Position numbers and translations under genes: made by a program. Under the pieces are notes generated by a model. It did not search any database, was not told the DNA's origin, and was given only the letters and a program-made list of their open reading frames with translations. Positions 1 through 17,023 of a stretch of 64,000 nt of DNA are shown here, in pieces. Positions within the stretch are counted from its first letter, which is position 1; every line of letters starts with the position of its first letter. Origin of the DNA: a virus (Duplodnaviria; Heunggongvirae; Uroviricota; Caudoviricetes); the IMG/VR virus record IMGVR_UViG_3300025009_000058, one strand, 5' to 3'.

Positions 1-697
1 TTGCAAAAGCTTGTCTGTAAGAATAAATAGTTTCAATGTCTCCAGGATTAGGCTCAATAGCTTCAATTGTCTTTGGATGACCTTTTCTTAAATACACATC
101 CCCCTTTGCGTTATTAAAAAGTAATGAGAAATACTCTCCATCAAGAAAAGCATTTTTAACAATTTCTCTTTCTTTTATTTCCATAGAATTAATTCTACGA
201 AATTCTGAAATAACTTCATTAACTTCTTTCACCGGTGTAGAAACTGTGATACCAGTACCAATAACATAATCAATATAATTATCTACTATTCCATTTATCA
301 AAGGATCTAAAGCATATTTTGTCCAACAAGCATCTTGAATCAACCATAGTTCTGAGTTTGTTAAATCAATCTCAGGAACAGAATCCATAGAGCTTAACAT
401 AATATCATTTACATCATTAAAATTCTTTGAAAACTTCTCATCTTTTACTAATTGTTTCTTAACAAATGCTGTAAGCTCTTTTTTACTATTGTCTCTCCTT
501 TCAATCTCACTAAATAAATATTCTGAATTTGAAGAAAGTATTCTAGCTTCTGCAAGTTCATTTTCAATTCGTTCTTTATGTTTCTCATAGAACAAATTAA
601 CAGCTGCTGATGCAGCTTCTTCAGAAGCTTTACTAATCTGAGTATCAATAGTTTCTTGAGTAGTAATTCTAATTTTGAACTTAAATGGATTTTTCAT
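1..697 (-). CDS. Portal (head-tail connector) protein, 5' portion. The gene continues beyond the window start.
   Basis: ATG at 697 on the minus strand. The frame stays open to position 1 (232 codons, translated by eye: MKNPFKFKIRITTQETIDTQISK...). It sits immediately after the terminase genes in transcription order. The portal call is by position and composition only. Confidence 0.45.
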   Translation of the reverse strand, partial: MKNPFKFKIRITTQETIDTQISKASEEAASAAVNLFYEKHKERIENELAEARILSSNSEYLFSEIERRDNSKKELTAFVKKQLVKDEKFSKNFNDVNDIMLSSMDSVPEIDLTNSELWLIQDACWTKYALDPLINGIVDNYIDYVIGTGITVSTPVKEVNEVISEFRRINSMEIKEREIVKNAFLDGEYFSLLFNNAKGDVYLRKGHPKTIEAIEPNPGDIETIYSYRQAFA

Positions 698-704
698 TTA
701 TATC

Positions 705-1733
705 CTATAGATACGGATTATTCAATCTAGATGATGATCTTAAATCTTGTATATCTCTTGGGTCAGTTGAGATACCATTACCATCATTAGATAATAGATA
801 GTTGTCATATTGTGCTTGAGCGTTCTTATAGAACTGGTCTTGATTCTGTTCAAATTCTTGTTCTGCTTGAGTGGTATAATACATCCTTTCATTCATTACA
901 CAATGGAATGTTGCTCCACATATAGCTTGTTCAACATCAAGTGTACCTCCAGGTGGATGATCTATTTTACCAGTAGCACCCACTTCTTGAGCATAGCTTA
1001 ATTCATCTTCAAAGTAGTCTCTATCATAGCCTACATTTTCTGAATTTGGTATATGTAATCTATCATCATAAATCAATTCTCTTAAGGTATATTGAGCTGC
1101 ATTATAGTTTCCTTCAGTTGACTTCTTTGAATAACCTAATTCATTATCATCAAGTTGTAACCAGTGTGCTGTCCTATCAATAGATAAATGACCAGCTCTA
1201 AAACCATAAGTTCTTAAAATCTGAATACTATCTAATGATTGAAATCTATCAAAAGAAATAAGACCAAAATAAAAGTGACGACGAGCTAATTCATAAATTA
1301 GCTCCCTTATTTCACCTAATATAATATCTTCACCTTTCCTTACAGTAATCCTACCCCAGAAGTCACATTTCACAACGGGTAATTTAACTTTTTCTATCTT
1401 TAATTTATCTTTATCATTAGGATTCTCAAGCCAAACTTCTCTATCAACAAAGGAAGGGACATGGCACATGGCTATACCAACAGCATCTCTATTTTGACCT
1501 AAATCTATATGCATAAAACGTCTAAATGTATCTTTGCAGATAAAATCTGGGTCAAAAGTCTTTGTAAATGGATTAAATAAATTAGGATATGGTTTCTTGC
1601 AGTCTTTTATTTTTCTTTTACGTCTGATAAAAGGATGTATACCTCTCTGGGTAATGTTTGCAATATCTCTAATGAAGTTCTCAATATTCCTTTGAGCACT
1701 AGATTGTAGTGACTTTGGTACACGAATAATCAT
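705..1733 (-). CDS. Large terminase, C-terminal nuclease-domain ORF (separate polypeptide)
   Basis: 342 aa. The RNase-H-like terminase nuclease motif I (FMHIDLGQNRDAVGIAMCHV, D...D) and a later acidic region (KIDHPPGG..DVEQA) are present. It follows the TerL ATPase ORF in the same orientation, with two genes in between. Confidence 0.55.
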   Translation of the reverse strand: MIIRVPKSLQSSAQRNIENFIRDIANITQRGIHPFIRRKRKIKDCKKPYPNLFNPFTKTFDPDFICKDTFRRFMHIDLGQNRDAVGIAMCHVPSFVDREVWLENPNDKDKLKIEKVKLPVVKCDFWGRITVRKGEDIILGEIRELIYELARRHFYFGLISFDRFQSLDSIQILRTYGFRAGHLSIDRTAHWLQLDDNELGYSKKSTEGNYNAAQYTLRELIYDDRLHIPNSENVGYDRDYFEDELSYAQEVGATGKIDHPPGGTLDVEQAICGATFHCVMNERMYYTTQAEQEFEQNQDQFYKNAQAQYDNYLLSNDGNGISTDPRDIQDLRSSSRLNNPYL

Positions 1734-1980
1734 GTTTAACTAATTCCTTTTTATTAATGGCTTTAGCTCCACGAAAAATGCAAGTATTTCTATCTGCTTC
1801 AGAAATATTAAAGTGAAACTCAACTATTTTTGTTGTTCTTTCCGGATTCACCCAGTGTGCTTTATCAGGTTCTAACCCTAAAATCTCTGCAGCAAATATT
1901 ACTAATTCTTCTGCAGACTTATCAGAGAATAGATGGGCATGAGGTTTAACAAGACCATGAATATCAGTTACATATATCAT
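1699..1980 (-). CDS. DUF4031-family protein
   Basis: 93 aa. The N-terminus MIYVTDIHGLVKPHAHLFSD...ELVIFAAEILGL resembles the DUF4031 family often found in phages. The start overlaps the upstream gene's stop. Confidence 0.5.
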   Translation of the reverse strand: MIYVTDIHGLVKPHAHLFSDKSAEELVIFAAEILGLEPDKAHWVNPERTTKIVEFHFNISEADRNTCIFRGAKAINKKELVKHDYSCTKVTTI

Positions 1981-2588
1981 TTTTTATTCCCTACTATATC
2001 TAGTAGATTAATTTGCCAACCCATGAGTAAAATTAAATTGGTTAGTGCAATTGCATCTGATAAAGCTCCATGAGGCCGATGAGTTATCTTCATAGTAGAA
2101 GTCCAAGTTGATAATTGATTGTTTACTAGTTTATTCCTTGATTCTCTACATAATTTTAATGTGTCAATATAAACATGATTAGGAGCAGTAGCACCATAAA
2201 ATTCTAGAAAAGCATGTTCAAAAGCGGCACTGTGTGCATATATTGGATGTTCTCCAAGTACTTCTTTCACTTCTTTTATGACTTCTTTGGTATTAAATGA
2301 TGGAAATCCTTTCAATAAATCAACTGATAAGCCATTTCTTTCAGCAGCTTTATCTGAGATGCTTTTAATAGAATAAAACTTATGATATACATCTTTTACT
2401 TGATTACCTATAACTTTTATAATTGCTATTTCAGCTACTTCACCTCCTACATTAGGACTCAAATTAGTAGTTTCTAAATCAACAACATTAAATGTGGGTA
2501 TGTTATGCATATCTTCCTCTTCTATGGGTTCTTCTATTAGTTTTATTAAGTCTTTCTGTAAAATCAATAATCGACTTACTTCACTCAT
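1977..2588 (-). CDS. DnaQ-like DEDDh 3'-5' exonuclease
   Basis: 203 aa. Exo I VVDLETTNL (D-x-E), Exo II YAHSAAFEHAFL and Exo III HGALSDAIALTNL (H-x4-D) are present. An ATGA start/stop overlap couples it to the upstream TerL-ATPase ORF. Confidence 0.7.
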   Translation of the reverse strand: MSEVSRLLILQKDLIKLIEEPIEEEDMHNIPTFNVVDLETTNLSPNVGGEVAEIAIIKVIGNQVKDVYHKFYSIKSISDKAAERNGLSVDLLKGFPSFNTKEVIKEVKEVLGEHPIYAHSAAFEHAFLEFYGATAPNHVYIDTLKLCRESRNKLVNNQLSTWTSTMKITHRPHGALSDAIALTNLILLMGWQINLLDIVGNKK

Positions 2589-3694
2589 TAACCTACCTTT
2601 AAGTACTTAGCAACTTTTGAAAGGTATTCAGCTTCCATTGACACAATTGGAAAGTTTGCAGCATCAGCAGCATCAAGTAATTCTATGACTTTTGGATCAG
2701 ATATAATCTCTGCATTATCAGTATCAATATAAAAATTATCTTTTTTATGGAGTTTTCCATCTTCATCATAACCTCCATTAAATTCAGGGTAAAATTTATG
2801 CCCTTTTGCTTCCCACATGGGTCTTCTTCTGTAAAAGATTCCAGAATCTGGAATAGTACCCTTTTCTTTTGCTTCCTTTACAATTTTATCATGCAATTCC
2901 ATCTGTTTATGCATAAAATCATCGGGAAAGTTTGGAGAACTAATCATACAGATCATACCTGGTAATTTACCATGTTTCATAAATCTTGAAGTCATTCTGT
3001 TGTAAATAGCATTATACATCTCTTCACAAGCATCAAAACTCCCATCAACAGTCTTATTAGAATCCTCAGTAACTTCCAAAAAAGCAGCTTCATCGATAAT
3101 ACTCCCATATAAGTTATAGCCCAATGCTGAAAGAGCAGAGCTTGTACCAGGGAAAATTGTAGTATTGTTTCTTGAGATCCGGATCTCAGTTGTAAATCTT
3201 GAATCAATAGGAAAATAGTCTTTATTAAATCCACACTGGAAGCGATTAAAGACTTCAGTGAATGTTACCTTTTTAGCTTGTTTCTCTGTGCGGTTCATAT
3301 TAATCAATGCTATAACTGAGCTTGGAGCTAAATCAAAGTAATCTTGTGGGTTATCAATCAAGGACAATTCAAACCATTGAAGCCAAGTAATAATAGAAGA
3401 CTTAGTTGTCTTACCAGAGCCGATTCCTTCCATGAAAATAACTAAGTTTACCTGTCTTTTCTTTCTCTCTTCAAACAAATCTACTATATCTTGTAAAACA
3501 CCATCATAAACTTTATCTCCAAAACCTAAAAAGTATGGATCTTTTATCAAAGTTTCAATAGGGATCTGTGCAAACTCATTAGCAATACGTTGATTCCACT
3601 CAAAAACAGCTCCAGTGGTCTTTTTATTATAATCATCTATATAGTCTTGTGCGAACTTATATAAATAATCTTGTGATTCATCTTTTTTTGCCAT
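2588..3694 (-). CDS. terL: Large terminase, ATPase-domain ORF
   Basis: 368 aa. Walker A GIGSGKTT, Walker B LYGSIIDEAAF and the coupling motif MICMISSP are typical of TerL ATPases. The ORF terminates before any nuclease domain. Confidence 0.8.
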   Translation of the reverse strand: MAKKDESQDYLYKFAQDYIDDYNKKTTGAVFEWNQRIANEFAQIPIETLIKDPYFLGFGDKVYDGVLQDIVDLFEERKKRQVNLVIFMEGIGSGKTTKSSIITWLQWFELSLIDNPQDYFDLAPSSVIALINMNRTEKQAKKVTFTEVFNRFQCGFNKDYFPIDSRFTTEIRISRNNTTIFPGTSSALSALGYNLYGSIIDEAAFLEVTEDSNKTVDGSFDACEEMYNAIYNRMTSRFMKHGKLPGMICMISSPNFPDDFMHKQMELHDKIVKEAKEKGTIPDSGIFYRRRPMWEAKGHKFYPEFNGGYDEDGKLHKKDNFYIDTDNAEIISDPKVIELLDAADAANFPIVSMEAEYLSKVAKYLKVG

Positions 3695-3945
3695 TACTTT
3701 AGCTTCTTTATTTTTATAATTGCTTGTTTTGGTATAGATGTTAATCCACTATAAGGCCTATGGTCTATTGTAGTACAACGACTTTCTGCTAAACAAATAC
3801 CTTCTTTAGTATATTCAATTAGAAAACCTACCGATTGACACTGTGATATATCAATATGACAATCTTGTTTACTCAACCAACCCGGTTGACCACTTGAATC
3901 TACCCAATCAACTAATATTAAATCATCTTTCTTAAGTTTCATCAT
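3694..3945 (-). CDS. Hypothetical protein
   Basis: 83-aa ORF translationally coupled to terL (its stop overlaps the terL start). Confidence 0.4.
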   Translation of the reverse strand: MMKLKKDDLILVDWVDSSGQPGWLSKQDCHIDISQCQSVGFLIEYTKEGICLAESRCTTIDHRPYSGLTSIPKQAIIKIKKLK

Positions 3946-3996
3946 AATCTAATTTTATCCTCCAGTGATCTGGTTTCTGATTTGTCCATTCTAGTT

Positions 3997-4215
3997 TCAT
4001 TCAAAAATCTCATTTATCCTATTTCTGATATAACTATTTTCAGGATTTGTAGGAAGATAAGTATTCCATTTTATTGGGTCATTTTCGAAAGGATTGCATC
4101 CATGTTTTTGTGCATTACTTGCCATTAACAAATTATTTGACATCCATTTACTAGCTTCATATCCTTCCAAAGTTATAACAGTTTTGTCATCTTGTTCAAT
4201 AATAATTCTTGCCAT
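3997..4215 (-). CDS. Hypothetical protein
   Basis: 72-aa ORF in the packaging module. Confidence 0.35.
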   Translation of the reverse strand: MARIIIEQDDKTVITLEGYEASKWMSNNLLMASNAQKHGCNPFENDPIKWNTYLPTNPENSYIRNRINEIFE

Positions 4216-4403
4216 TTATAGTCTCCAAGAGTTTTAAGAGCTTTTCTCAGTTATGATATATGTTTTTGGTATCCAGCCTGGTAGAGTAAAACCTTTTATT
4301 CTGGCATAGACTCTGTCACTATATTTGTGCATAATCCAACATTGAATATACACTGGTTTATAACCAGGACCGGCTAACCAAGCCGCAACATCAACATAGG
4401 TCT

Positions 4404-4610
4404 TCATACTTTCTCAGCATCTTCTTCTTTCAGAGTATACAATTTCTTGTCATACTCAAAGTCTGAGAAAGTTTTTAATCTATTTAATATGGCTTCTTTA
4501 TCAGAGCATAATCTCAGGTCAATGAAATACCATTTCCCCAGAAAACCTTTCGGCCTTTTAGCTTTGATTGCACCAAGATAATATGTTTCAGAATTCACAA
4601 CTCCAGCCAT
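4404..4610 (-). CDS. Hypothetical protein
   Basis: 68-aa ORF whose stop abuts the upstream gene's start. Confidence 0.35.
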   Translation of the reverse strand: MAGVVNSETYYLGAIKAKRPKGFLGKWYFIDLRLCSDKEAILNRLKTFSDFEYDKKLYTLKEEDAEKV

Positions 4611-4612
4611 GA

Positions 4613-5389
4613 TTACTCCACAGGAATAGCAGCTTCAACTTTTTTCAAAAATGAATTTTTCATTTGGTCTGGATCTATTTCTCCAGAATGTATTCTATCT
4701 TTATTTCTAAACGGAATGATGACTTGATTCAGAATATCGTTCATGAGGTTCTTAGCCTCTGGGCCGCGAATTCTTCCAGCAATGATCTCAAATATCTGTT
4801 GGACAAATTCTCTGACGGAGGTTGCATCGAGACGCAATTCTCGCTGTATTTTGTTTTTCAGACCCTTGGCTTTCACCAAATCAAGTGTGATACCTCTGAC
4901 AGTCTCAATTTGGTCGAGAGTCATTTCTTCACCCATTGTCATAATATAGTTTTGCAAAGCATATAGCATTTTGATCTCTGTGTCAACAGACATGAGATCT
5001 TTCTCCTCCAGCTCCTCTGCATGTTCCAATAATTCTGACATCCGTGCTGGGAGCCTGTGTGCCGTTGAAAGCTGAATATTATACAATGACCGTCGACCGT
5101 GATTCGAACATTTTCCGAATCCTTTGTGATCTGATCCCCATCCTGCAGTCAAAAGGCATGGACCATATGTTGTTCTATGGCCACAGATTTTTCTTAGTTT
5201 AACTCCTTCTGGCGATATCAACCAATGAGTGCTCTCAGCTGTATCTTCTTCAACCCGATATCCTTGGAGTTTTTTAAGTTTCCGTATGCCACTAATCTGC
5301 CTGCTAACAGTCTTTATAAATTGTCCAGGGTCATCTTTGGTCTTTGATTGTTCTGAGAGAGATCCGAGTCTTATCTGTTGTTTTGCCAT
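4613..5389 (-). CDS. Zinc-ribbon protein, possibly the small terminase subunit by position
   Basis: 258 aa with a CGHRTTYGPC...CSNHG motif and a C-terminal coiled-coil-like region. The gene is markedly GC-richer (about 45%) than its flanks (about 27%). It lies upstream of terL in the same orientation. Confidence 0.5.
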   Translation of the reverse strand: MAKQQIRLGSLSEQSKTKDDPGQFIKTVSRQISGIRKLKKLQGYRVEEDTAESTHWLISPEGVKLRKICGHRTTYGPCLLTAGWGSDHKGFGKCSNHGRRSLYNIQLSTAHRLPARMSELLEHAEELEEKDLMSVDTEIKMLYALQNYIMTMGEEMTLDQIETVRGITLDLVKAKGLKNKIQRELRLDATSVREFVQQIFEIIAGRIRGPEAKNLMNDILNQVIIPFRNKDRIHSGEIDPDQMKNSFLKKVEAAIPVE

Positions 5390-5766
5390 CTAGGATAGAT
5401 CACTTATGTTTTTACGGAAAATTAAAATGGCTTTATTTAGCCTATCCCATCTATATATGCTAAGAACTCAATCAAAGCACAGCGATACAATTTTATTATA
5501 ATTTGGGAATATGGAGATATTTGTTAGCGTATATTTTATCAATTATATAGTCCTGCTTACACTGGATTAGTTTTATGAAAATCCAAAATTAAAGGATATT
5601 CAATATCTCAGTATAATTTCAAATTGGAAGCCGCTTGCAAGTTGAGTGAAGATTTTTTAGGCATGTGAAAGACGGATGAGTCGGGTAAGTTCAAAAATTT
5701 TTTAAGAAATTTTTTGGAAGATGACTAGACTTTGAAATCGTTGCGAGTTGTTAATAGGTGGAATAA

Positions 5767-5858
5767 TTGGATGATTGGATGATTGGATATTGGCTAATCA
5801 GCTTTAGTGGCTAATCAGCTTTAGTGGCTAATCAGCTTTAGTGGCTAACCGGCTATTC
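5767..5858. repeat. Tandem repeats: (TGGATGAT)x2+TGGATAT, then a 17-mer TGGCTAATCAGCTTTAG x3 plus a degenerate fourth copy
   Basis: Read directly: ggatgattggatgattggatattggctaatcagctttagtggctaatcagctttagtggctaatcagctttagtggctaaccggctattc. It lies in a 750-bp noncoding region next to the putative terS. Confidence 0.85.
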
Positions 5859-5898
5859 CGGATACGGGCTTCTCATTGATAAAAAAAGTTGTCAATTG

Positions 5899-5917
5899 AG
5901 TTGTATTATAGTTGTCA
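5899..5917 (+). promoter_or_regulatory. Short-spacer variant of the conserved promoter-like motif, plus orientation
   Basis: gtattatagttgtcaagtg resembles GTATTATATTTGTTTTGTCAA with a shorter middle. It overlaps the palindrome TTGTCAagTGACAA and lies upstream of the plus-strand island. Confidence 0.25.
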
Positions 5918-6137
5918 AGTGACAAAGACGGAAACATGTCCACAGTAGAAATGCTTATTTTCAAGGTTATGGTGTATAGACAAGGCGACGCCCGTCATAT
6001 ATCTTTGAAACTTTTTTTGAGTTGTAATAGTTTGAGTCTTGATAGTTCACAAAATATATATTATTTATTTTTACAAAGTATTGATTTTTGTTTATACATT
6101 CATTAAGTTTCATTTAGTAATTAATTGAGATATAAAC

Positions 6138-6392
6138 ATGGAAACAATAAAAAAAGAATTTAGAATAGTTACTGCAATTGGAAACAAAATAAGATACTTT
6201 GAATCTAAAGTAACCTATGGGAGATACAAGGGTTGGACTATAGTTTTAAATCTTAATAAAACAGAAGCAACTTTAATTCATCAAAATCAAGTTTTTAGGG
6301 TTCTAATTGATGAGGTTGCAACAGCAAAATTAACATCAGGAAATAAAAGAAATAATAATCAAGACTTAAACAATCACATATTAAGAGGTTAA
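6138..6392 (+). CDS. Hypothetical protein (plus-strand island)
   Basis: 84-aa ORF, the first gene of a short plus-strand island inside the minus-strand arm. Confidence 0.45.
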   Translation: METIKKEFRIVTAIGNKIRYFESKVTYGRYKGWTIVLNLNKTEATLIHQNQVFRVLIDEVATAKLTSGNKRNNNQDLNNHILRG

Positions 6393-6518
6393 AATGAAAA
6401 TAGTTGAAGATAAGCAAGAAAATGGAGTAGGTTTATTTTTAGCAATATTAAGCGGTATTTTTTGGTTATTGGGGTGGGCATGGTATTTAAATAATGAATC
6501 ATTTAATTTTATATTTTA
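6393..6518 (+). CDS. Small membrane peptide (41 aa, single TM)
   Basis: Not in the ORF track (shorter than 60 aa). RBS AAGAGG precedes the ATG at 6393. Translation MKIVEDKQENGVGLFLAILSGIFWLLGWAWYLNNESFNFIF*. Confidence 0.35.
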
Positions 6519-6529
6519 AGGGTAATAGC

Positions 6530-6703
6530 ATGGCAAATCAAATTAATAAAAAGAAAAGTTATGTATCGGCTAATATGGTAAGGCATTCCATAGCTTTAAA
6601 TGAACAAAAAAAACCAAGTCCAATTTTTCAAACTGAGGTTAAATATAATGGTTTGAAACATGACTTAAAAAATGACATTAAACAACAAATTTATAAGTTT
6701 TAG
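6530..6703 (+). CDS. Hypothetical protein
   Basis: The track ORF 6494..6703 is trimmed to the internal Met (MANQINKK..). The RBS is weak. Confidence 0.3.
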   Translation: MANQINKKKSYVSANMVRHSIALNEQKKPSPIFQTEVKYNGLKHDLKNDIKQQIYKF

Positions 6704-6838
6704 ACTTAAGATATAACTTTATAAAAAGCAACTTTATAAAAAAATAACTTGACTTTAGTAAAAAAAGAAATTATTTTTAAACAGCTTAATTAAGGTAATT
6801 AAGCTAAAATAAAAACCAAATCAAATAGGAGTAATATT

Positions 6839-7357
6839 ATGTCAGAGCAAAAATTCAGTGATTCCGTAAACATTAACTCACGGACTTCCCAATCTTCAGA
6901 AGCTCAAAAAGCCCTTGAAGTCCCCTTTTCAACTGATGAGAGTAAGAATTTAAAAACTCACCTGCAAGCTGGAAACATTTACTTAGGCAGTTACTCAGGA
7001 ATTGGTTTAAAAAACCATTCATCAAAAATTGAGCCTTTTTCAAGTTTTAGGCACTATTGCCAAAAAAGTAAAAATTTGGGTATCTCTCAAAATCAAGTGG
7101 TAAAAGATGGCGGTTTAAACTTTGAAGCTATTCAAGAAATTGCTAACTCAAAGAAGTTTGTTTCTATTGATGGTGATATTTGCGCAGTTTCATTCGTTGA
7201 AAAAGGAAACGTTTTACTTTTCAGCTTAACCGGATTGAAAAAACGATTTTCAAAAGTTGAAACTGTTCAAAGTAAAATTGAAACCAAAGCCGAAACCAAA
7301 GCCAAAACCGAAGCTAAAACCGAAGTTAAAACCGAAGTTAAAACCGAAGCTAAGTAA
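6839..7357 (+). CDS. Hypothetical protein with a C-terminal (K/E)T(E/K)(A/V) tandem repeat
   Basis: 172 aa. A strong RBS AGGAG lies 7 nt upstream. The C-terminus is ETKAETKAKTEAKTEVKTEVKTEAK. An intrinsic terminator follows. Confidence 0.6.
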   Translation: MSEQKFSDSVNINSRTSQSSEAQKALEVPFSTDESKNLKTHLQAGNIYLGSYSGIGLKNHSSKIEPFSSFRHYCQKSKNLGISQNQVVKDGGLNFEAIQEIANSKKFVSIDGDICAVSFVEKGNVLLFSLTGLKKRFSKVETVQSKIETKAETKAKTEAKTEVKTEVKTEAK

Positions 7358-7364
7358 TAAAAAG

Positions 7365-7390
7365 AAAAGCGGACTAACAATCCGCTTTTC
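7365..7390 (+). terminator. Rho-independent terminator
   Basis: aaaagcgga-ctaacaa-tccgctttt: a 9-bp stem followed by a T tract, directly after the stop of 6839..7357. Confidence 0.7.
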
Positions 7391-7404
7391 GATGTACCTA
7401 AAAA

Positions 7405-7430
7405 AGATATTAAGGTCTTAATGTAGTTTG
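7405..7430. repeat. 26-bp direct repeat, copy 1, with an internal palindrome ATTAAGgtCTTAAT
   Basis: agatattaaggtcttaatgtagtttg. A second copy lies at 7529-7554 (one mismatch). Confidence 0.8.
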
Positions 7431-7528
7431 CGACTCCCGTGAAATTGCTTTAGATTTAAATACTTTATACTTATAGCGAATCCCGTGGAAATCGGACATT
7501 AGTATCTTATTATCCTATATGGCTAATC

Positions 7529-7554
7529 CGATATTAAGGTCTTAATATAGTTTG
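7529..7554. repeat. 26-bp direct repeat, copy 2
   Basis: cgatattaaggtcttaatatagtttg. The region between the copies also holds the imperfect repeats gactcccgtgaaattg and gaatcccgtggaaatcg. Confidence 0.8.
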
Positions 7555-7805
7555 TTGTTCATGTTGTTTCAATTGCTTTGTATATTATATACATTACAAT
7601 GTAGGGAATTGTGTATTGACAAGTGTAAAGTGGGTGGTGAATAGATAAGTATTATATTTGGTTATATAAGGTGAAATGTAAAAATTTTGTGAGAAGTATT
7701 GGGTGAGTTGTGTAATAGGTAAAATCGTAAAAGCCATATCTTATCCTTATATTATAACTACCCACTTCCATGGTGTTCGCAGGCTTATCTCTGTCCATTT
7801 GCGCG

Positions 7806-7841
7806 CATAAAAAATCCCGGATGGTTAATATGATCCGGGAT
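7806..7841 (-). terminator. Rho-independent terminator for the minus-strand gene 7876..8220
   Basis: Hairpin atcccggat-ggttaatat-gatccggga. It is followed on the minus strand by TTTTTT (plus aaaaaa at 7809-7813), 35 nt after the stop. Confidence 0.65.
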
Positions 7842-7875
7842 CAAGTCAATCATAAATAGTTAAGGAGGCTACTAA

Positions 7876-8220
7876 TTAATATCCGAGAACATATCCGGCT
7901 TTTCCATTATGACGAATAACTCTATTAGCCAATGTAGATAAAGCCATGTTCAGTTTCGATCTTTTTAATTGCAACGATTTGTTTTCTTTTGCTTCTTGAA
8001 TTGATATACCGGTGATAGCTTTAAAGTCTGCAATACTCATACCAGCAGCTTTAGCCAACGCGTAGTTATTAAAACCAATCCGGTGAAGAGCTTGAACAAA
8101 ATTCATTTTATAAAGAGGTTTTGTTCTCTTAAAGCCCTTTTTGTTCGGCGATCCTGTTTCTGATATAACGATCATTTTTAATTTGTTAATGTTATTTTGA
8201 AGTGTAGTTCTAGTAGCCAT
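7876..8220 (-). CDS. Putative DNA-binding protein (HTH-like)
   Basis: The track ORF is trimmed to the internal Met (MATRTTLQNN...), so the conserved promoter motif at 8248-8269 lies upstream rather than inside the gene. The basic region KGFKRTKPLYKMNFVQALHRIGFNNYALAKAAGMS looks HTH-like. Confidence 0.5.
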   Translation of the reverse strand: MATRTTLQNNINKLKMIVISETGSPNKKGFKRTKPLYKMNFVQALHRIGFNNYALAKAAGMSIADFKAITGISIQEAKENKSLQLKRSKLNMALSTLANRVIRHNGKAGYVLGY

Positions 8221-8247
8221 TTTAATTTCCTTAAATATTATTTTTGA

Positions 8248-8269
8248 TTGACAAAACAAATATAATACA
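8248..8269 (-). promoter_or_regulatory. Conserved promoter-like motif, copy (ttgacaaaacaaatataataca)
   Basis: 28 nt upstream of the 8220 start. Confidence 0.6.
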
Positions 8270-8274
8270 TCCGT

Positions 8275-8496
8275 TTATTTATATACTCTTTTCAACTCAA
8301 GATTAACAAATTTAATAAATGAATCAAAAGAGTCAAATCCTCTAATCTTTACTTCTTCAAGTAACTTATTTTGAAAACCATTCAAATAGTCTTCTCTCTC
8401 TGAAGTTGAAGCATAATATGATTTCTCTCTTGATGATAAAAAAGATTCAATTATATAGCCTAGAACAAAATGAGACAATAAATTTAAATTAATCAT
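8275..8496 (-). CDS. Hypothetical protein
   Basis: 73-aa ORF. Confidence 0.4.
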   Translation of the reverse strand: MINLNLLSHFVLGYIIESFLSSREKSYYASTSEREDYLNGFQNKLLEEVKIRGFDSFDSFIKFVNLELKRVYK

Positions 8497-8595
8497 CTGA
8501 ACTTCTCCTCAATTAATATTATTTTATAAAATTGATATTTCAAAATTAATATCTAAATTTTCTTTTGTCAACATTTATTTAACTTTTTATAATTT

Positions 8596-8620
8596 AATTA
8601 CCAAACATAAAAACATCTCT
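8596..8620 (-). promoter_or_regulatory. Degenerate copy of the promoter-like motif (taattaccaaacataaaaacatctc)
   Basis: Upstream of 8275..8496. Confidence 0.3.
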
Positions 8621-8635
8621 AATTTTAGATAATAT

Positions 8636-8720
8636 CATCAGCGAACCCATCGGACTTCGTCCTACCATCTTATATTATCCTGCCGGCTTCCTACTTCAGA
8701 GCCCTCTTATCTTTGAAACA
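8636..8720. repeat. Structured noncoding element A, with a partial repeat at about 10780-10860
   Basis: Shared blocks are atcagcga, a GGAC..GTCC hairpin, atcttatatt and ggcttc. Both copies sit just upstream of promoter-motif copies. Confidence 0.5.
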
Positions 8721-8774
8721 TAGAGGCTTACTTCTTATTAATAAGCTTTCTTATATCTACAAGTTCTTAGCTAT

Positions 8775-9197
8775 CTAATATGATTCACAATAAAATAATA
8801 TTGTTCTATCAACACCCGCTTCCGCAAATACATCATTCCATTGCTCATCATTCAATAAAGCCTTTATGAAAGCATCCCAAATCTTCTGATCTTCTGCATA
8901 TTCTTCTTTAATCAAAAGCCCGTGAGAGACAAAAGCTTCTTTAAAATGGAATGTAGCCGAGATTGAATAAGCACCGTGTAGCTCAACCCAAGTAAATAAT
9001 ATGACCATAGAGCCAATATGTTTTGATATTGCATTAATAGCATCTATCCTACGTTGTTCTCCATCTTTGTATTCTTCCCACTCAGGTCTTATACCAAAGT
9101 CTGGATTAGTATAATGAGCTTTAATAAATGTAGTACCAAGATCAACTCCGTCAGCATTAACATATACTTTTGCAATTACATCTTGTTTCATTTTCAA
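8775..9197 (-). CDS. Hypothetical protein
   Basis: 140-aa ORF. Confidence 0.5.
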   Translation of the reverse strand: MKMKQDVIAKVYVNADGVDLGTTFIKAHYTNPDFGIRPEWEEYKDGEQRRIDAINAISKHIGSMVILFTWVELHGAYSISATFHFKEAFVSHGLLIKEEYAEDQKIWDAFIKALLNDEQWNDVFAEAGVDRTILFYCESY

Positions 9198-9589
9198 TCC
9201 TCCTCATTTATATGTGAATAAATCTTTTTAACATTACCAAACTTCTTTTTGTATTCCCGAATTAACCTCAACTCTTCGGGTTCAGGCTTCCCAAACAATC
9301 TTGTACTACAGATAATAAGATAATCTGCTAATTCCGGATCTTCTATCCCATCAATAAATGCATCAAACTGTGCCAGTCTTTTATTCCTGATTTTACCCCA
9401 ATCAGATCTTCTATATTCTTGTTCTTCTTTGAGTATCTTTTTTTCATCAATTGAAGTTCTAATGCCATTAATAACGTTTTCAGAATAATATTCATCTATC
9501 TTTATTTGTGCTTTTTGTATTACTTCCGCTTGAGTTGGAGGAACATTTTTAATTGTTTTAATCCGCAGTGTATCTTGGTAAACTTCCAT
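9194..9589 (-). CDS. Hypothetical protein
   Basis: 131-aa ORF overlapping its downstream neighbour by 4 nt. Confidence 0.5.
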   Translation of the reverse strand: MEVYQDTLRIKTIKNVPPTQAEVIQKAQIKIDEYYSENVINGIRTSIDEKKILKEEQEYRRSDWGKIRNKRLAQFDAFIDGIEDPELADYLIICSTRLFGKPEPEELRLIREYKKKFGNVKKIYSHINEED

Positions 9590-9618
9590 TTTTTGCCTCC
9601 TTATAGCTTATTAGTTAA

Positions 9619-10143
9619 TTAGTCTTCAATAATATAAAGGTTCATTTCATAATTTGGATTCAATTTTTTAATTTCTTCTTCAACCCTATTATGCCTTTCT
9701 TTATCCTTCTTTGATATTGTATATTTAAGCTTCAATGGGATGAATTTTGAAGAACGGATTGTTTGACTTGTATCATCAAGAGTTTTTAAATAATGATTTA
9801 TAACAATTTTTGAAATGAGGATTGGTTTTTGAGCAATTAGTGATTCAATTTTTTTATTAAAGAAGCCAAATTCCATACCATATTTGGTTATTAACTCAAC
9901 AAGGAGAGGATTGTTTTTGGCTGCAATAGCTTGATTCAATTCAAGAACAAAAGGCTTTACCCTATTTGATTCTTTATACATATTCAATAATTTTGTTCTT
10001 TGAGCATCTTTAATTTTTTGAGCTTCTTCCGCTTCAGTTAAGTATGTTTTTTGTTTAGGAAGGGTAGAACAAAAGCATTTTGTATTATGATGTACTTTTA
10101 TTCTTACCTGCTTCAAATTGATTGTATCAAAATATTGTTGCAT
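9619..10143 (-). CDS. Hypothetical protein
   Basis: Trimmed to the internal Met (MQQYFDT..). This Met has the strong RBS AAAGGAGG and leaves the promoter motif at 10179-10200 upstream of the gene. Confidence 0.5.
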   Translation of the reverse strand: MQQYFDTINLKQVRIKVHHNTKCFCSTLPKQKTYLTEAEEAQKIKDAQRTKLLNMYKESNRVKPFVLELNQAIAAKNNPLLVELITKYGMEFGFFNKKIESLIAQKPILISKIVINHYLKTLDDTSQTIRSSKFIPLKLKYTISKKDKERHNRVEEEIKKLNPNYEMNLYIIED

Positions 10144-10178
10144 TACGTTGCCTCCTTTTGAATTATTTTTTATTTTAA

Positions 10179-10200
10179 TTGACAATTCAAAAATAAATAC
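10179..10200 (-). promoter_or_regulatory. Promoter-like motif copy (ttgacaattcaaaaataaatac)
   Basis: 36 nt upstream of the 10143 start. Confidence 0.45.
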
Positions 10201-10416
10201 TTTTATCAATATTATCAACCATTTTTTAACTTTATTAACATATATAACAGAGCAATCTAAGAGCACACCTCTGCCCCAAAAAGATTATTATAATTATCAG
10301 TTATGCCTGCTTGTCCAGACGTCTGAAAGTTATATAACTTTCTGGGACATTAGTGTATCATCCATATGGGTGAGATAGCTGACATCTTTGCCCAGATGAT
10401 AGCGCGCAATAAAATG

Positions 10417-10728
10417 TTACTGTATGGAGCTTATAATAAAAATATCTTCATTATTTTGAGAGATCCAAACCATTGTTTCATCATCAAATGTGATGTTAAA
10501 ATACTCTTTCAATCCTTCAACTTCTTGTTTGGACATTAGATTATCATAACCAGCATTAATAGATACCATATGTAGAGTTGTATTACCTGGATCATCCGTT
10601 AGCTGTGATAAATCATAATGAGTAAATTTTGCTTTAATATTAGGTTTTATAGTATGATAATATTCTTCAATAGCATCGGAGTAAAGATGTTTTTCTGCAT
10701 TAATTGTAAATGGCATCTGGTACCTCAA
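10417..10728 (-). CDS. Hypothetical protein
   Basis: 103 aa. SD GAGGT lies 8 nt before the ATG. Confidence 0.5.
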   Translation of the reverse strand: MRYQMPFTINAEKHLYSDAIEEYYHTIKPNIKAKFTHYDLSQLTDDPGNTTLHMVSINAGYDNLMSKQEVEGLKEYFNITFDDETMVWISQNNEDIFIISSIQ

Positions 10729-10741
10729 TTTTATTATTTAA

Positions 10742-10763
10742 TTGACAAAACAAATATAATACA
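10742..10763 (-). promoter_or_regulatory. Promoter-like motif copy (ttgacaaaacaaatataataca)
   Basis: 14 nt upstream of the 10728 start. Confidence 0.6.
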
Positions 10764-10769
10764 GCTATC

Positions 10770-12060
10770 TAATCCTATATCATTAATCAGCGAGTCCAGT
10801 GGACGAAGTAAGTCGCAGCTATCATATCTTATATTCTGGGCTTCTTTCCTCAACTTATGTATTATATCCCATAGTTTGTGCCTATTAGCCGGTCAAAGAT
10901 GGAGATCTGGGCTAAGTATTGTATATTGGCAACAATGGTATCTTTTTACCAAGGTTTGCCAACGACTACAAAAGAAAGCCCGACGACTCCAAAGTATGCC
11001 AAGGATACAATTGGAATTTGCAATAGGGGCACATTTGCTATCTGGTGTGGTTATTGAGAGCTGTTCGTTGGATATCCTTGAATAATCTACGGGAGCCATT
11101 TTGGATAGATAAAGTTACTTATATTGAAAAGAAAAACAAACTAGGGGCTCATTGGCTAACCGGCTTGAAGCTGGAACATCGTTTCAAGTTACTGGAACAG
11201 TGGAACATTTTGTTCCATCTATCAATTACAAGATGTTTCAAGTTGCTGGAACATCTATTCCAGCCTAATGGCGGCTGCACGGAACTGACAGGTCGCTTTT
11301 ATTGAATATTAATACATAGTAACATAGCCGGTTAGCCATTTAAAACTGGTTAAGCTTATAGCCATTTTATCCGTCCCAGCCGGTTAAATTTACATTTTTC
11401 CTTTTCTTTTCCATTACATTCATTATCCTACTATTATTCCTATTGTATGTTAAAAGATAGAGTTTTCTTTGAAAAGATATTTTATTTTATCCATTCAATA
11501 CATTACTCTTAGCATATTTTCCTTATATATTTATGTTAATGTATGTATTTGGAATGCTATTGTTTTTAGTTTAAGTCTTATAATGAATAGTATTTATTAT
11601 ATAAAGAATACAACTTATAAGGGCACCAAACTTTTAACGTACACCCCCAAAGTAATGAGTACTATAATATAAATTTGATAGGTGGCGGGTGAGAGGACGG
11701 ACGGAGGCTGTGAAGTGTCCAGATGTGGAGATGATTGTATTTTGGATATTTTGGAAAATTTATTGAATTGGACTATCTGTGTGTGGAGAATGGGATATGG
11801 AGTCAATATTTTGAAAAGAGAGTCAAATGGTATCTGTGGGACCATCCCAAGACCAGATGATCAGAACCGACCAAGATGTCAGGTCTGTGGAATACTGCGT
11901 TGTGAAAGTCAGATTGTCATTTTGGTGATCTTTCTGAATATCGTTCAAATGTTTAGTGAGAAGATCTGTGACCAACGGGGCATTCTTGGAGGATATGATT
12001 CTGGATTGATGAGCTCTCAGTGAAGATGATTTTGATGTAGGCACTATCTGTTTTTTGGTT
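10770..12060. other. GC-elevated, ORF-poor noncoding island with iteron-like repeats
   Basis: No convincing ORF on either strand; track ORFs here carry the DNA repeats. CTGGAACA occurs four times at 11170-11262, with a palindrome tggaacattttgttcca at about 11205. There are repeats of c(c/t)ggtta(a/g)..agccatttt at 11300-11390 and an AT-rich tract at 11400-11680. Confidence 0.5.
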
Positions 12061-12280
12061 TTTATGCCAATTTTATAGATAATTACAGCGAAAATTGAAC
12101 AAAGTATTGACCAAGTCATAACAAACAAAATAATATCTATTAATGTCATCATTTATCCTTTTTATTAATTTCCATTACCTTTTTGAATCTCGAGCTTCTC
12201 ATTTTCATTAATTTATACTTCAAGTGCATTGATGTCACTTAACCTTTGTTTAAACTCTTCTATAGACATCACGTAATACT

Positions 12281-12589
12281 TCACAATTCATCTCCATTTT
12301 TAAAAGGTAATTCATCTTCAATAAATTTAATATAATTCTTTCTCAAATTTTTCAATTTGGAAATAATAGCAGATTCTAATTCAAGGTCAGGTAAAAGATC
12401 TTCAGAAATTGTTATTATGTATCTTGGTTCATGTGGTAACAAACTTTTTCTCAATGAAAGATTAGTAACTTCAATTGAATCAGAATCTTTCAACAACAAT
12501 GCATCAATTTCATCTATCTTGTTTTGAAGCTGTGATATAATCTTAATCTTTTTTTGAAATTCTTGCAAAGTCAATTTAATTTGTCCCAT
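12281..12589 (-). CDS. Hypothetical protein
   Basis: 102-aa ORF. Confidence 0.45.
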   Translation of the reverse strand: MGQIKLTLQEFQKKIKIISQLQNKIDEIDALLLKDSDSIEVTNLSLRKSLLPHEPRYIITISEDLLPDLELESAIISKLKNLRKNYIKFIEDELPFKNGDEL

Positions 12590-12824
12590 TTACGTCTTCC
12601 TTATATGAATAATGTATACAAATAGTTGTTGTGATTGGTGCACCACCATAAAGAGAATGTGATTGTGAGGTTGATAATAGAACTTTAATTGTTAAATCAT
12701 TCTTAGTCTTTCTCAAATGTTCCATAAACAAATTGGCTTCTGTTTCAATCCTTTTAGTATTATCAATACTCTCAAAAATAGCAATTTCATTATAAGTTTT
12801 CATCTTTAACCTCAAGCTTATCAA
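12576..12824 (-). CDS. Hypothetical protein
   Basis: 82-aa ORF. Confidence 0.4.
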   Translation of the reverse strand: MISLRLKMKTYNEIAIFESIDNTKRIETEANLFMEHLRKTKNDLTIKVLLSTSQSHSLYGGAPITTTICIHYSYKEDVNGTN

Positions 12825-13296
12825 TCAATTCTTGAATTCCTTGCAAAGCAGATGGTAGATATATTCGGTCAATAACTTTGTATTCTGACTCCAAGTTATT
12901 GTATTCAATTATATAAGACCGAATATTCAAAAGATTTTTCATCAAACTATTATCTAGTATTGGAAAAGTGAGCTCTCCAACAATAACCTCTTGATATTGT
13001 TTCTTCAATTTGAGAAGGCTATCTACAAGAACAGTTTTTGAAAGAATGTCTTCAATGAAAGCGTCTGATAATGTTATCGTAGTTTGATCATCAATATCCT
13101 GGTCGTTTGCCAATCTAATTTTGAAGCCATCAATTCGAATAGGGCCTTTATGAGCTAAGATCTCATCTATTTTATCAATATTTTCTCTGGTCTCTTTAAC
13201 ACAATCAGAGCGACTCATTAATTCATCTTCAGATATTTTTATTACTGCTTTCATTTTGTACCTCAATTTATTTATTTCTATATTTATCTGCGACAT
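12790..13296 (-). CDS. Hypothetical protein
   Basis: 168-aa ORF. Confidence 0.5.
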   Translation of the reverse strand: MSQINIEINKLRYKMKAVIKISEDELMSRSDCVKETRENIDKIDEILAHKGPIRIDGFKIRLANDQDIDDQTTITLSDAFIEDILSKTVLVDSLLKLKKQYQEVIVGELTFPILDNSLMKNLLNIRSYIIEYNNLESEYKVIDRIYLPSALQGIQELIDKLEVKDENL

Positions 13297-13462
13297 TCTT
13301 CAGTGTATTAAAATGTCTTGGTGAAAGATCTCCTTTTTGAGTATAATATTTATGCGTACTCTTTATGAAACCTAATTCCCAATCAGTTAATTCTTTCTCA
13401 TGTCTCAAAACAATATTAATATTTTCAGAAATGATTTTTGTTCTAATATTACTTAGTGTCAT
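13268..13462 (-). CDS. Hypothetical protein
   Basis: 64-aa ORF. Confidence 0.35.
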   Translation of the reverse strand: MTLSNIRTKIISENINIVLRHEKELTDWELGFIKSTHKYYTQKGDLSPRHFNTLKNVADKYRNK

Positions 13463-13640
13463 AAGTTACTGAGATTGTTATTTCAATAGTTTGAAGAGAC
13501 CTGTTATGAGAATAGTCTCCACTGCGTAATATATCCAATAATTCAGGAACTGCTTCTTGTAATTTTGAAGTTGTTGCTTTTGAAATAATCTGCTGTTTCT
13601 TCAAAGTCTTACTGGCTGTTTTAATCTTTCTTAAGCTCAT
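13449..13640 (-). CDS. Hypothetical protein
   Basis: 63-aa ORF. Confidence 0.35.
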   Translation of the reverse strand: MSLRKIKTASKTLKKQQIISKATTSKLQEAVPELLDILRSGDYSHNRSLQTIEITISVTYDTK

Positions 13641-14034
13641 CTAATAATTCCATTGAATATTTATTCAAAATAGACTGAAGATAATCAGCTCTATCATTTA
13701 ACAATTTTAATATAGCTTTAGGTGAGGGAGGTAAATCCTCATAATCATAAAGTATGTAACTAGGATGAGATTTACATCTCTTAAAATGATCATCTTGACC
13801 TAAAATACATTTATTACAATTATCTGACATACCAAAAAAATGATATGGAAAATAAACTTGCTCACATAATAAACAAGTACCAAATACGTTTAGAACATAT
13901 TTATTTTTTAATTTCTTGGGCACTTTTCCTGCAGAAAAGTCTTCTAATTCTTTATAAACTTGTTTCTCAGTAATACTTCTATATCGTCGAATAACCTCTT
14001 TTAAAGTATCAATATGTTCTTTAGAATATGTCAT
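13621..14034 (-). CDS. Cys-rich (putative zinc-binding) protein, paralog 3 of a tandem triplet
   Basis: MTYSKEHIDTLKEVIRRY.., then CLLC..x..C.KCIL...H..C. Confidence 0.55.
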   Translation of the reverse strand: MTYSKEHIDTLKEVIRRYRSITEKQVYKELEDFSAGKVPKKLKNKYVLNVFGTCLLCEQVYFPYHFFGMSDNCNKCILGQDDHFKRCKSHPSYILYDYEDLPPSPKAILKLLNDRADYLQSILNKYSMELLDELKKD

Positions 14035-14423
14035 AGCTCAACACCTGTTTTTTCACTTAATATTCTTTTCAAATATTTAATTCTTGCATTAATAAGTTTG
14101 ACAAGATGAATTATAGAAAGACAGTGTTCTCCCATTAATAAGTAGGTAGAGCTCTTAACACAAGGATGTTCATCAACAAATAAAATACATTTCATACATT
14201 CTTTATCAATAATAGTATTTTTATTAAGGGACTTACACAATAAACATTCTCCATCTTCAAATACTAATTCTTTTCTAATTAAATAAGGCATCTTTTCCCA
14301 AGTATAAGGATGATAAGTAGCTTTATGCTTAGAATGTATTCTTAATATATCAATATCCGTTATAGACTCATAACGTTTAATGACTTCTTTCAAAGCATCA
14401 ATATGCTCTTTAGAGTATATCAT
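14031..14423 (-). CDS. Cys-rich protein, paralog 2 of a tandem triplet
   Basis: MIYSKEHIDALKEVIKRYESITD.., then ECLLCKSL..C.KCILF. Confidence 0.55.
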   Translation of the reverse strand: MIYSKEHIDALKEVIKRYESITDIDILRIHSKHKATYHPYTWEKMPYLIRKELVFEDGECLLCKSLNKNTIIDKECMKCILFVDEHPCVKSSTYLLMGEHCLSIIHLVKLINARIKYLKRILSEKTGVEL

Positions 14424-14839
14424 AATTCAATTCCAGCCTTTTCTTTTAATACTTTTTTCAAATAATTAATCCTTGCTTTAATCATTTCATAAACCATTAA
14501 ATGATTTGTGCAATTTGAATCAAAAGATATATAAGTAATATGAAAAGTACAAAATTTATACTCTTGTCTATCATATAAAATACAAAACTTACAATTTTTA
14601 TCAGTAACAGACTCTTTATATAATGATTTACATAATAAACATTCATGTCCATCCAAAATATATTCTTTTTTAACAAGATATGGCATTCTTTCCCATATTT
14701 CTTTTTCAGTAATTAAGGATAATTGGTGACGTTCTTTATACTCAACATATACTTTTTTTATCATATCATCCGTTATAGACTCATAACGTTTAATAATTTC
14801 TTGAAGTGCATCAATGTTTTTTTGACCATATCCCATCAA
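14420..14839 (-). CDS. Cys-rich protein, paralog 1 of a tandem triplet
   Basis: ..NIDALQEIIKRYESITD.., then ECLLCKSL..CKFCILY.. Confidence 0.55.
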   Translation of the reverse strand: MMGYGQKNIDALQEIIKRYESITDDMIKKVYVEYKERHQLSLITEKEIWERMPYLVKKEYILDGHECLLCKSLYKESVTDKNCKFCILYDRQEYKFCTFHITYISFDSNCTNHLMVYEMIKARINYLKKVLKEKAGIEL

Positions 14840-15054
14840 TCTAAATCCTTAAAATATTCTTTAATATCATTAAAAGTATCAATTAGATTAATACACATTC
14901 TATAGAGCAAGAAAAACCATAAAATAAAAGGTATCATTAAAATGTGAAATTGTTTCTTAGTTTCAATATATGGATATCCATCTATTACAAGTATTATGAG
15001 AACAAACAATTGAACCACATATGAAACAATTAATAAGATAAGCTCATTTAACAT
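14836..15054 (-). CDS. Small membrane protein
   Basis: 72 aa, two hydrophobic helices. Confidence 0.4.
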   Translation of the reverse strand: MLNELILLIVSYVVQLFVLIILVIDGYPYIETKKQFHILMIPFILWFFLLYRMCINLIDTFNDIKEYFKDLD

Positions 15055-15073
15055 ATTTATCCTATATTTGAAA

Positions 15074-15556: not shown

Positions 15557-15558
15557 TG

Positions 15559-15753
15559 TTATTTATTCCCTTTTGAATAATCTAGTACCTTTGGCATATT
15601 TCTATGTACAAACTGTAATTCATCTCTGTAAACAAAAGAGTTATTTGATTTTCTAATACCATTTCTCTTTCTAAACTCCAATACCAAAGAATCAACCCAC
15701 ATTGGAATCTCTTTTGAAAAAATATATTCTGGAATATATTGAAATGATTCCAT
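15559..15753 (-). CDS. Hypothetical protein
   Basis: 64-aa ORF. Confidence 0.35.
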   Translation of the reverse strand: MESFQYIPEYIFSKEIPMWVDSLVLEFRKRNGIRKSNNSFVYRDELQFVHRNMPKVLDYSKGNK

Positions 15754-16316: not shown

Positions 16317-16343
16317 ATCAAACCTTTTTCAATTTGTTTTTGA

Positions 16344-16365
16344 TTGACAAAACAAATATAATACA
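16344..16365 (-). promoter_or_regulatory. Promoter-like motif copy (ttgacaaaacaaatataataca)
   Basis: 28 nt upstream of the 16316 start. Confidence 0.6.
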
Positions 16366-16626: not shown

Positions 16627-16661
16627 TTATATACCTTTTAGTTTATTAACAAGATTTAAAA

Positions 16662-17009: not shown

Positions 17010-17023
17010 AAGTATGTCTCCTG

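Follow-up and report, generated by a model that had tools for sequence, protein, structure and literature searches.

A probable lineage-specific accessory operon of four small genes at a transcription-unit junction in an uncultured phage

Hypervariable accessory-gene regions occur at the module junctions of virulent phages. A moron is recognised as extra DNA in comparison with related phages in which its flanking genes adjoin; it carries its own promoter and its own terminator, has a GC content unlike that of the surrounding genes and is expressed from a repressed prophage (PMC3594210). Here we analyse a stretch of 64,000 nucleotides from the tailed-phage record IMGVR_UViG_3300025009_000058 (the whole stretch is called the window), in which four small plus-strand genes, hereafter the island, lie within a leftward-transcribed arm. 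A preliminary description of this DNA had taken the island for an inserted moron-type cassette flanked by GGCTAATC-containing repeats.

We propose, with moderate confidence, that the island is an ordinary lineage-specific accessory operon at a module boundary, native to the phage and not a recent foreign insertion, and that the repeats around it are not insertion scars. The region 5390-7875 would be the junction of two leftward transcription blocks, one being the small-gene arm, with the gene r114 as its last unit under its own promoter motif and terminator, and the other the packaging and structural operon that begins at a terS-like gene (terS). At the junction there would be a single accessory operon read rightward, its four small protein genes being restricted to this lineage.

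Four small genes between two leftward blocks

The coding island extends from 6138 to 7357 and comprises four plus-strand genes between two minus-strand transcription blocks; across it the composition skews of the plus strand switch to A>T and G>C. The first gene, i84 (84 amino acids (aa), 6138-6392), is called in public contigs, and 1 nt past its stop codon starts i41 (6394-6519), which encodes a predicted single-pass membrane peptide of 41 aa with one hydrophobic helix (GVGLFLAILSGIFWLLGWAWYL). The third, i57 (6530-6703), is called as 57 aa in contigs, the longer alternative being 69 aa from 6494. These three genes are tightly spaced; i172 (172 aa, 6839-7357) follows after a 135-nt spacer containing its own Shine-Dalgarno (SD) sequence, AGGAG at 6827-6831, 7 nt ahead of the ATG, and a palindrome. 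The C-terminal tail of i172 (7281-7353) consists of E/K-T-K/E-A/V repeats, encoded by 5.8 copies of a 12-nt unit (ETKA/KTEA/KTEV), and differs in length between strains, giving proteins of 172 or 164 aa. Both the membrane peptide and the repeat-tailed protein with its SD are thus as the preliminary description had them.

To evaluate these open reading frames (ORFs) we used a sister strain, L009, a 3.2-kb contig from another sample (JGI 3300029959) that covers 5229-8471. The ratio of non-synonymous to synonymous substitution rates (dN/dS) against this strain was 0.11 for i84 (17 synonymous and nine non-synonymous changes), 0.16 for i41, whose membrane half is invariant, and 0.08 for i172, whereas i57 differs by six synonymous changes and no non-synonymous one, leaving the protein identical. 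Among the other five frames of the i172 locus, the three that were estimable gave 0.8-2.1, one had no synonymous change and one, on the minus strand, gave 0.16. Within i172 a patch of 34 codons (7048-7150) has accumulated 17 substitutions without a single amino-acid change, including the synonymous switches Ser AGT>TCA, Arg AGG>CGC and Leu TTG>CTC. Given this purifying selection, together with the skew reversal, all four ORFs of the island are real genes, and the i172 protein is tightly constrained.

The left limit of the island had been placed at 5912, where a 64-aa ORF (5912-6106) begins. In L009 a stop codon and a frameshift interrupt this ORF, and none of the contigs has it among its called genes, so that it is not a gene and the island starts with i84.

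For i172, a word-indexed search of 5.8 billion clusters and an exhaustive HMMER scan of 1.84 billion representatives both failed to turn up a homologue beyond the species to which it belongs, and tblastn found no match. Viral contigs scanned for patterns from terS and from i172 alone yielded nothing either. A match to PsaE (E 0.012) falls in the low-complexity tail and was discounted. It is reasonable to suppose that the island proteins, for example the membrane peptide and the constrained soluble protein, provide dispensable accessory functions that act on the host.

Lineage restriction, mosaicism and the flanking repeats

As relatives we compared eight independent loci in which TerL (the terminase large-subunit ATPase) is 55-66% identical to that of the window. 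In all eight, the genes that precede terS run in the same direction as terS, the sole opposite-strand exception being one 50-aa ORF called in locus L002, and they include no homologue of the island genes or of those on the right flank of the window; terS, TerL and the genes beyond are what the relatives and the window have in common. As no such cassette is present in these relatives, the opposite-strand arrangement is lineage-specific, and the description of a separate, oppositely oriented unit holds, the two leftward units on either side each having signals of their own. The island is also contained in all of the ~24 contigs that carry an exact r114 or terS, and all closest strains carry it. 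The relatives, too, end a transcription unit just before terS, L087 having a terminator ~100 bp upstream of that gene.

A true moron, in which horizontal transfer would have placed a self-contained promoter-gene-terminator cassette between terS and the small-gene arm, is an account that we consider unlikely but worth keeping in view. The opposite orientation, the terminator and the position at a module boundary fit it well, as do the lineage-specific occurrence (the relatives have only co-oriented genes and no island homologue), a divergence above that of the flanks, as in modular exchange, and a slightly atypical codon usage. The GC content, however, is that of the genome, 0.302 in the island versus 0.297 in 82 other genes (standard deviation per gene 0.034; 0.226 versus 0.193 at third codon positions, GC3), so that the difference in GC usual in moron descriptions (PMC3594210) was not found. 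Moreover, no relative has conserved flanks minus the cassette, and the genes on the right flank are equally lineage-specific; since the relatives' upstream genes are all non-homologous, the comparison of adjoining flanks is blocked and an insertion is not demonstrable. The flanking repeat proposed as its signature is at chance level and lost in L009, the candidate promoter discussed below is of the phage's own motif type, and there is no sign of a prophage, a search of 185,579 species genomes of bacteria and archaea having yielded no TerL relative.

The distribution of differences from L009 bears directly on the age of the cassette. Divergence is 0% over 5229-5787, 5861-5975 and 7151-7280, 1-2% over 7358-7575 and in r114, and 10-16% in i84, i41, the middle of i172 and 7576-7800, the flanks differing by 0-1.6%. 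The diverged patches must derive from a lineage that already held a diverged cassette, which makes this an established recombining module and not a recent arrival, and the patchy mosaic of 0-16% indicates that the cassette predates the split from L009. Judging from these sequences, it is an established resident of the phage species that appears to be swapping alleles between co-circulating strains. Of the moron-type insertion put forward earlier, the opposite orientation and the terminator stand; a foreign origin and a recent insertion are not supported.

The repeats to the left of the island are indeed present. Tandem Repeats Finder reports an 8-bp array, ATTGGATG x3.6, at 5766-5793 and, adjoining it, a 17-bp array, TGGCTAATCAGCTTTAG x3.4, at 5791-5848, which bears GGCTAATC and ends in TGGCTAACCGGCT, the arrays together spanning 5766-5854. 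They vary between strains: L001, an otherwise identical contig, has one 17-bp unit fewer, and in L009 the left array is rearranged and devoid of GGCTAATC, this strain having GGCTAACC on the left and AGCTAATC on the right, with no GGCTAATC on either side. In the window GGCTAATC does also occur to the right of the island, at 7521-7528, preceding the second right-hand repeat as described. Nevertheless, what the left array and the 485-bp spacer on the right (between the terminators of the island and of r114) have in common is one 9-mer, TGGCTAATC; by resampling, a common word of nine or more nucleotides is expected with P ~0.09 and an 8-mer with P ~0.28. The whole-window count of GGCTAATC is five, a number matched in 4 of 100 shuffles, and three of the five lie within one tandem array.

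The 13-mer TGGCTAACCGGCT recurs 5 kb from the left array in two inverted copies, at 11153 (+) and 11326 (-), and has ten matches at two or fewer mismatches where 2.2 are expected. The inverted pair delimits a 186-nt structured element (11153-11338) with a 13-bp stem, TGGCTAACCGGCT/AGCCGGTTAGCCA, internal CTGGAACA repeats and fold z-scores of -5.65 (+) and -5.0 (-). Given this recurrence and the variability of the array, the array motif is a dispersed non-coding element and not a mark of the island boundary. Matching direct repeats at both ends that are conserved among carriers, as expected of site-specific insertion, were not found, and the GGCTAATC signature on which the insertion had been argued dissolves into one 9-mer of a family with members at 11153 and 11326. 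The left arrays are variable-number repeats and not insertion scars. A second gene-free stretch of ~1.55 kb (10729-12280), in which no gene is called in the public contig, surrounds the structured element and has a GC content of 0.346, rising to ~0.40 in 400-nt windows. No Rfam family reached the threshold in the window, and the matches in 5000-8500 and 10500-12500 were at chance level only.

Short tandem duplications that vary between strains are not confined to the 17-bp array (5791-5848). Others are a 17-nt and a 15-nt duplication in the island spacers (6068 and 6721), two 12-nt units in the i172 tail (7281-7353) and a 15-nt insertion in r73 (8406). Their number suggests that replication slippage is frequent in this genome.

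Repeated TerS-binding sites are known from the R sites of lambda cosB, and the non-coding region to the left of the island, where the 17-bp unit is repeated three to four times in direct orientation some 400 bp ahead of terS, might be read as a packaging recognition site to which the island is merely adjacent. We find this quite improbable: the copy number and the sequence of the array vary between near-identical strains, its 13-mer is also found as the inverted pair at 11153 and 11326, and no comparable tandem array lies upstream of terS in the relatives. Contigs do break at the array, and a physical genome end there was considered and rejected; the breaks fall exactly where 31-mers repeat, as explained by k-mer assembly.

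A different origin for the opposite orientation would be the inversion of an ancestral co-oriented segment, in which case a 183-aa protein of L002 and a 148-aa protein of L005 would be diverged counterparts of i172. The L002 protein, encoded upstream of terS, has a charged low-complexity tail and aligns to residues 92-145 of i172 (BLASTP E 0.013, hhalign P 0.0024), and in both loci non-coding gaps of several hundred bp to ~1.1 kb surround these genes. The hhalign probability is just 12%, however, phmmer finds nothing, the L005 protein gives no alignment, and inverted repeats flanking the island are lacking except for a 23-nt, 83% AT-rich pair. Inversion thus seems to us a slim prospect, and we return to the native accessory operon as the reading to be examined in terms of its transcription signals.

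Transcription signals and the palindromic block

The island is closed by a hairpin at 7364-7390 with a stem of 10-12 bp and a free energy (dG) of -14.2 kcal/mol on the plus strand and -16.2 on the minus strand (z-scores -6.3 and -4.3). It has the two hallmarks of an intrinsic terminator, a stem rich in G+C and, after it, a T-run on the strand being transcribed, and it is invariant in L009. The T-run is TTTTC on the plus strand and TTTTCTTTTT, the better one, on the minus strand, and the terminator scan scored the site on the minus strand only. The terminator assigned earlier to the island (7365-7390) is accordingly real as a hairpin and bidirectional, rather than a clean rightward one. Island transcription would stop here, and the same hairpin may shield the operon from leftward transcription converging on it.

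Comparison of the non-coding regions of the phage revealed a recurrent 22-nt motif, GTATTATATTTGTTTTGTCAAT(Y)AAAA (GATGTATTATATTTGTTTTGTCAAT(Y)AAAA), that resembles a promoter: nearly all of its ~18 high-scoring sites lie on the strand of the local gene, 8-50 nt before start codons. Examples are found at 8241-8274 (-), 10735-10768 (-), 16337-16370 (-), 20162-20195 (-), 35947-35980 (-) and 52358-52391 (+). The first half of the motif also occurs in relatives (L003, L011, L087), and the TTTTGTCAAT half is specific to this phage. A rearranged copy, GTATTATAGTTG, sits between two TTGTCAA boxes on the plus strand at 5887-5920, upstream of i84, with one mismatch to the 12-mer GTATTATATTTG. Plus-strand copies of this 12-mer at one or fewer mismatches number only two in the minus arm, this one and an exact one at 7649-7660, and they flank the island. 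The surrounding block, 5861-5975, has no substitution and one 1-nt deletion relative to L009, while neighbouring stretches are 9-15% different. We infer that 5887-5920 is the best candidate for the start site of the island, from which transcription would most likely proceed.

Several observations weigh against a native operon driven from this site. The 5887-5920 copy scores nothing with the full 34-nt matrix, and in its core, TATAGTTG, a G replaces a near-invariant T of what can be read as the Bacteroidota -7 box (PMC6847099); because the copy deviates from the consensus and fails the full matrix, the start site is uncertain. Rival candidates are a bare TATCTTTG (6000-6007) and a weak sigma-70-like sequence seen by eye at 6081-6109, which the scan did not report. 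The codon-usage distance of the island is in the top 4% of gene sets of the same size, and an old acquisition is possible. Finally, the island proteins have no meaningful match in Pfam, PHROGs, NCBIfam, PADLOC or the sequences of the PDB, and the single-sequence AlphaFold2 (AF2) model of i172 is unusable, with a predicted local distance difference test (pLDDT) of 36.

The motif itself allows two readings, one as a -7 box of the Bacteroidota type and one as a TATA-like box of archaea. The -7 element of Bacteroidota sigma-AB is TAHHTTTG, and these bacteria normally lack SD sequences (PMC6847099). The motif core TATATTTG fits that element. The bare 8-mer shows no strand bias in the window (42 versus 38 and 18 versus 19). 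AGGAG-type sites precede the start codon in 36 of the 86 window ORFs of at least 80 codons, which is unusual for Bacteroidota. Sites of the sigma-70 consensus are not enriched in the region.

On the right of the island lie two 25-nt direct repeats (7406-7430 and 7530-7554), 124 bp apart and identical at 24 of 25 positions, each holding the palindrome ATATTAAG-GT-CTTAAT(A/G)T. The palindrome-bearing direct repeats reported at 7405 and 7529 are therefore confirmed as a pair, with the restriction that the 18-nt palindrome is perfect in the second (7531-7548) only, the first copy (7407-7424) matching at seven of eight positions per arm. No further copy was found in the 64 kb at three or fewer mismatches. 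Both repeats are invariant in L009, and the non-coding block that contains them, 7358-7575, differs at 4 of 218 positions (1.8%), as against 29 of 225 (12.9%) just to the right. A leftward sigma-70-like sequence, TTGAAA-17-TATATT (7572-7544), overlaps the second repeat, and a minus-strand RNA from 7540 to 7358 would fold with a z-score of -3.9 relative to shuffles, three of the four substitutions keeping pairs. Perfect palindromes, of which there are two in 800 bp, are only mildly unusual, and in exact scans of viral contigs the 18-nt palindrome gave five unrelated single matches and the promoter motif one. The right repeats look like conserved palindromic sites resembling protein-binding sites and not like insertion scars, and together with the minus-strand fold they are leads, resting on few changes, for a protein-binding site or a small RNA.

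Beyond this block, the non-coding stretch 7576-7800 evolves fast. L009 carries changes at two key positions of the exact plus-strand 12-mer (7649-7660), and a short hairpin at about 7716-7745 shows two double compensatory changes between the two sequences compared (7741/7722 and 7738/7725), with G-U/A-U transitions that suit the minus strand.

The stretch is followed by the r114 terminator (7805-7842, minus strand), a hairpin, GAUCCCGGAU/AUCCGGGAUU, and UUUUUA, which converges on that of the island. r114 itself (114 aa, 7876-8220, minus strand) forms the right boundary of the junction, and the promoter-like motif ahead of it, at 8241-8274, scores higher than any other site with the motif matrix (41.2). 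With its own motif and terminator, r114 is a single-gene leftward unit. Its AF2 model has a pLDDT of 70-87 over residues 40-100 and five short helices, and similarity to XRE-type helix-turn-helix (HTH) proteins is weak (NCBIfam PRK10072, E 0.068; best Foldseek E 0.97, many of the weak matches being XRE proteins). The predicted structure is such that r114 may be an HTH protein.

The spacer before i172 (6713-6838) has signals of its own on the plus strand: a 15-16-nt tandem repeat (6713-6773), a sigma-70-like TTGACT-17-TATTTT (6749-6777), a palindrome with 10-bp arms, AGCTTAATTA-AGG-TAATTAAGCT (6783-6805, hairpin z-score -3.4), and the AGGAG. The L009 spacer has one extra 15-nt unit and keeps the palindrome and the SD.

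These features raise the question of whether the junction is a regulatory module, in which one or more of the small proteins, i172 or the adjacent r114, would bind the palindromes (6783-6805, 7407-7424, 7531-7548), the 17-bp array or both and set the time at which the small-gene arm gives way to the late operon beginning at terS; a small RNA transcribed leftward (7537-7362) might take part. The contrast between the 1.8% and 12.9% stretches, the promoter-like sequence overlapping the second repeat, the leftward preference of the terminator T-run and the pair-preserving fold of the minus strand all suit this idea, as do the XRE-like signals of r114, the prediction of three short helices followed by strands for the most constrained segment of i172, and the position directly upstream of terS. 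Yet no DNA-binding domain was detected in any island protein, i172 yields no usable model, the fold matches of r114 are at E ~1, only four substitutions bear on the RNA, and neither the number of palindromes nor the frequency of sigma-70 sites departs much from expectation. We consider such a module improbable. More doubtful still is a combination of the cassette and its promoter-motif variant, the 25-nt repeats, a possible leftward RNA of ~175 nt and the 13-mer element at 11153-11338 into a new timing switch at the entry of the packaging operon, in which i172 would be a new, repeat-tailed protein that binds DNA or RNA.

Genome setting and comparison with known systems

The phage has a genome of ~121-123 kb with a low GC content (0.295) and is known from metagenomes only. 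A contig of 121,179 bp in ENA aligns to positions 1-17357 of the window with no substitutions and a single 17-bp gap; ERZ27254811 is one of the samples that contain the ~121-kb contig. Leftward genes extend from ~40.4 kb down to 7.9 kb, and rightward genes start at 42.4 kb. At the DNA level, no similarity to window positions 5400-8100 was found in the 50,697 phage records, and the nearest terminases are ~33% identical to the TerL of the window. The island proteins and r114 are deposited at NCBI as HLD98126.1-HLD98130.1, from a metagenome-assembled genome labelled 'Candidatus Nanoarchaeia archaeon' (contig of 123,545 bp), which is probably a mis-binned viral contig. One TerL relative carries a Thorarchaeota label, and the replication genes of the phage are DnaB- and DnaG-like.

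The left boundary of the junction is terS (258 aa, 4613-5389, minus strand), the first gene of the leftward packaging and structural operon, which encodes a Cys/His zinc-ribbon motif and whose full-length frame is kept in relatives at 35-49% identity, directly upstream of TerL. TerL (2588-3694) matches phage terminase large subunits, and its gene encodes only 368 aa, corresponding to the ATPase part (Pfam MJ0330_N). A gene for an RNase T-type exonuclease directly follows it (1977-3694 for the two), an order kept in most of the relatives examined (loci L002-L008), and some relatives (P0014, P0052, P0055) have an intein inside the ATPase gene. Elsewhere in the window, the small-gene arm contains a tandem triplication (13621-14839, minus strand) of three adjacent paralogues of 137, 130 and 139 aa with 30-42% mutual identity, and at 31382-31455 (minus strand) ARAGORN finds a tRNA-like gene whose anticodon has four bases (gaaa) and to which no amino acid is assigned.

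Taken alone, the island is a minor finding, another of the lineage-specific cassettes that lie where modules meet, here in an uncultured phage. Its value is as an example of how one strain comparison can show four tiny genes to be real, a 41-aa peptide included. What is new is the recurrent 22-nt promoter-like motif, which offers a handle on the transcription map of a phage group of which the phage genomes searched include no cultured member. The conserved palindromic block and the i172 protein deserve attention first, the latter being worth expressing in view of the 34-codon stretch recoded at 17 synonymous sites with the protein unchanged.

Compared with the bidirectional intrinsic terminators found between convergent genes, the hairpin at 7364-7390 has the same succession of an A run, a G+C stem and a T run and is usable on both strands, but it has only four T in the direction of the island and no convergent gene lies directly opposite. 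The lambdoid morons, such as the HK97 gene 15 element (PMC3594210), resemble the island in being short, independently oriented units with their own terminator, placed between conserved modules, absent from relatives and encoding small proteins unrelated to virion or replication functions. The island differs from them in that its GC content is that of its neighbours, no relative has the two flanks adjoining, the candidate promoter has the phage's own type of motif, there is no evidence for lysogeny, and it holds four genes instead of one or two. With the hypervariable junction regions of virulent phages it has in common the lineage-specific small genes, the strain-level mosaicism and the position at a transcription-unit boundary, and it departs from them in running antiparallel to both neighbours and in being bracketed by a conserved promoter-motif variant and palindromic repeats.

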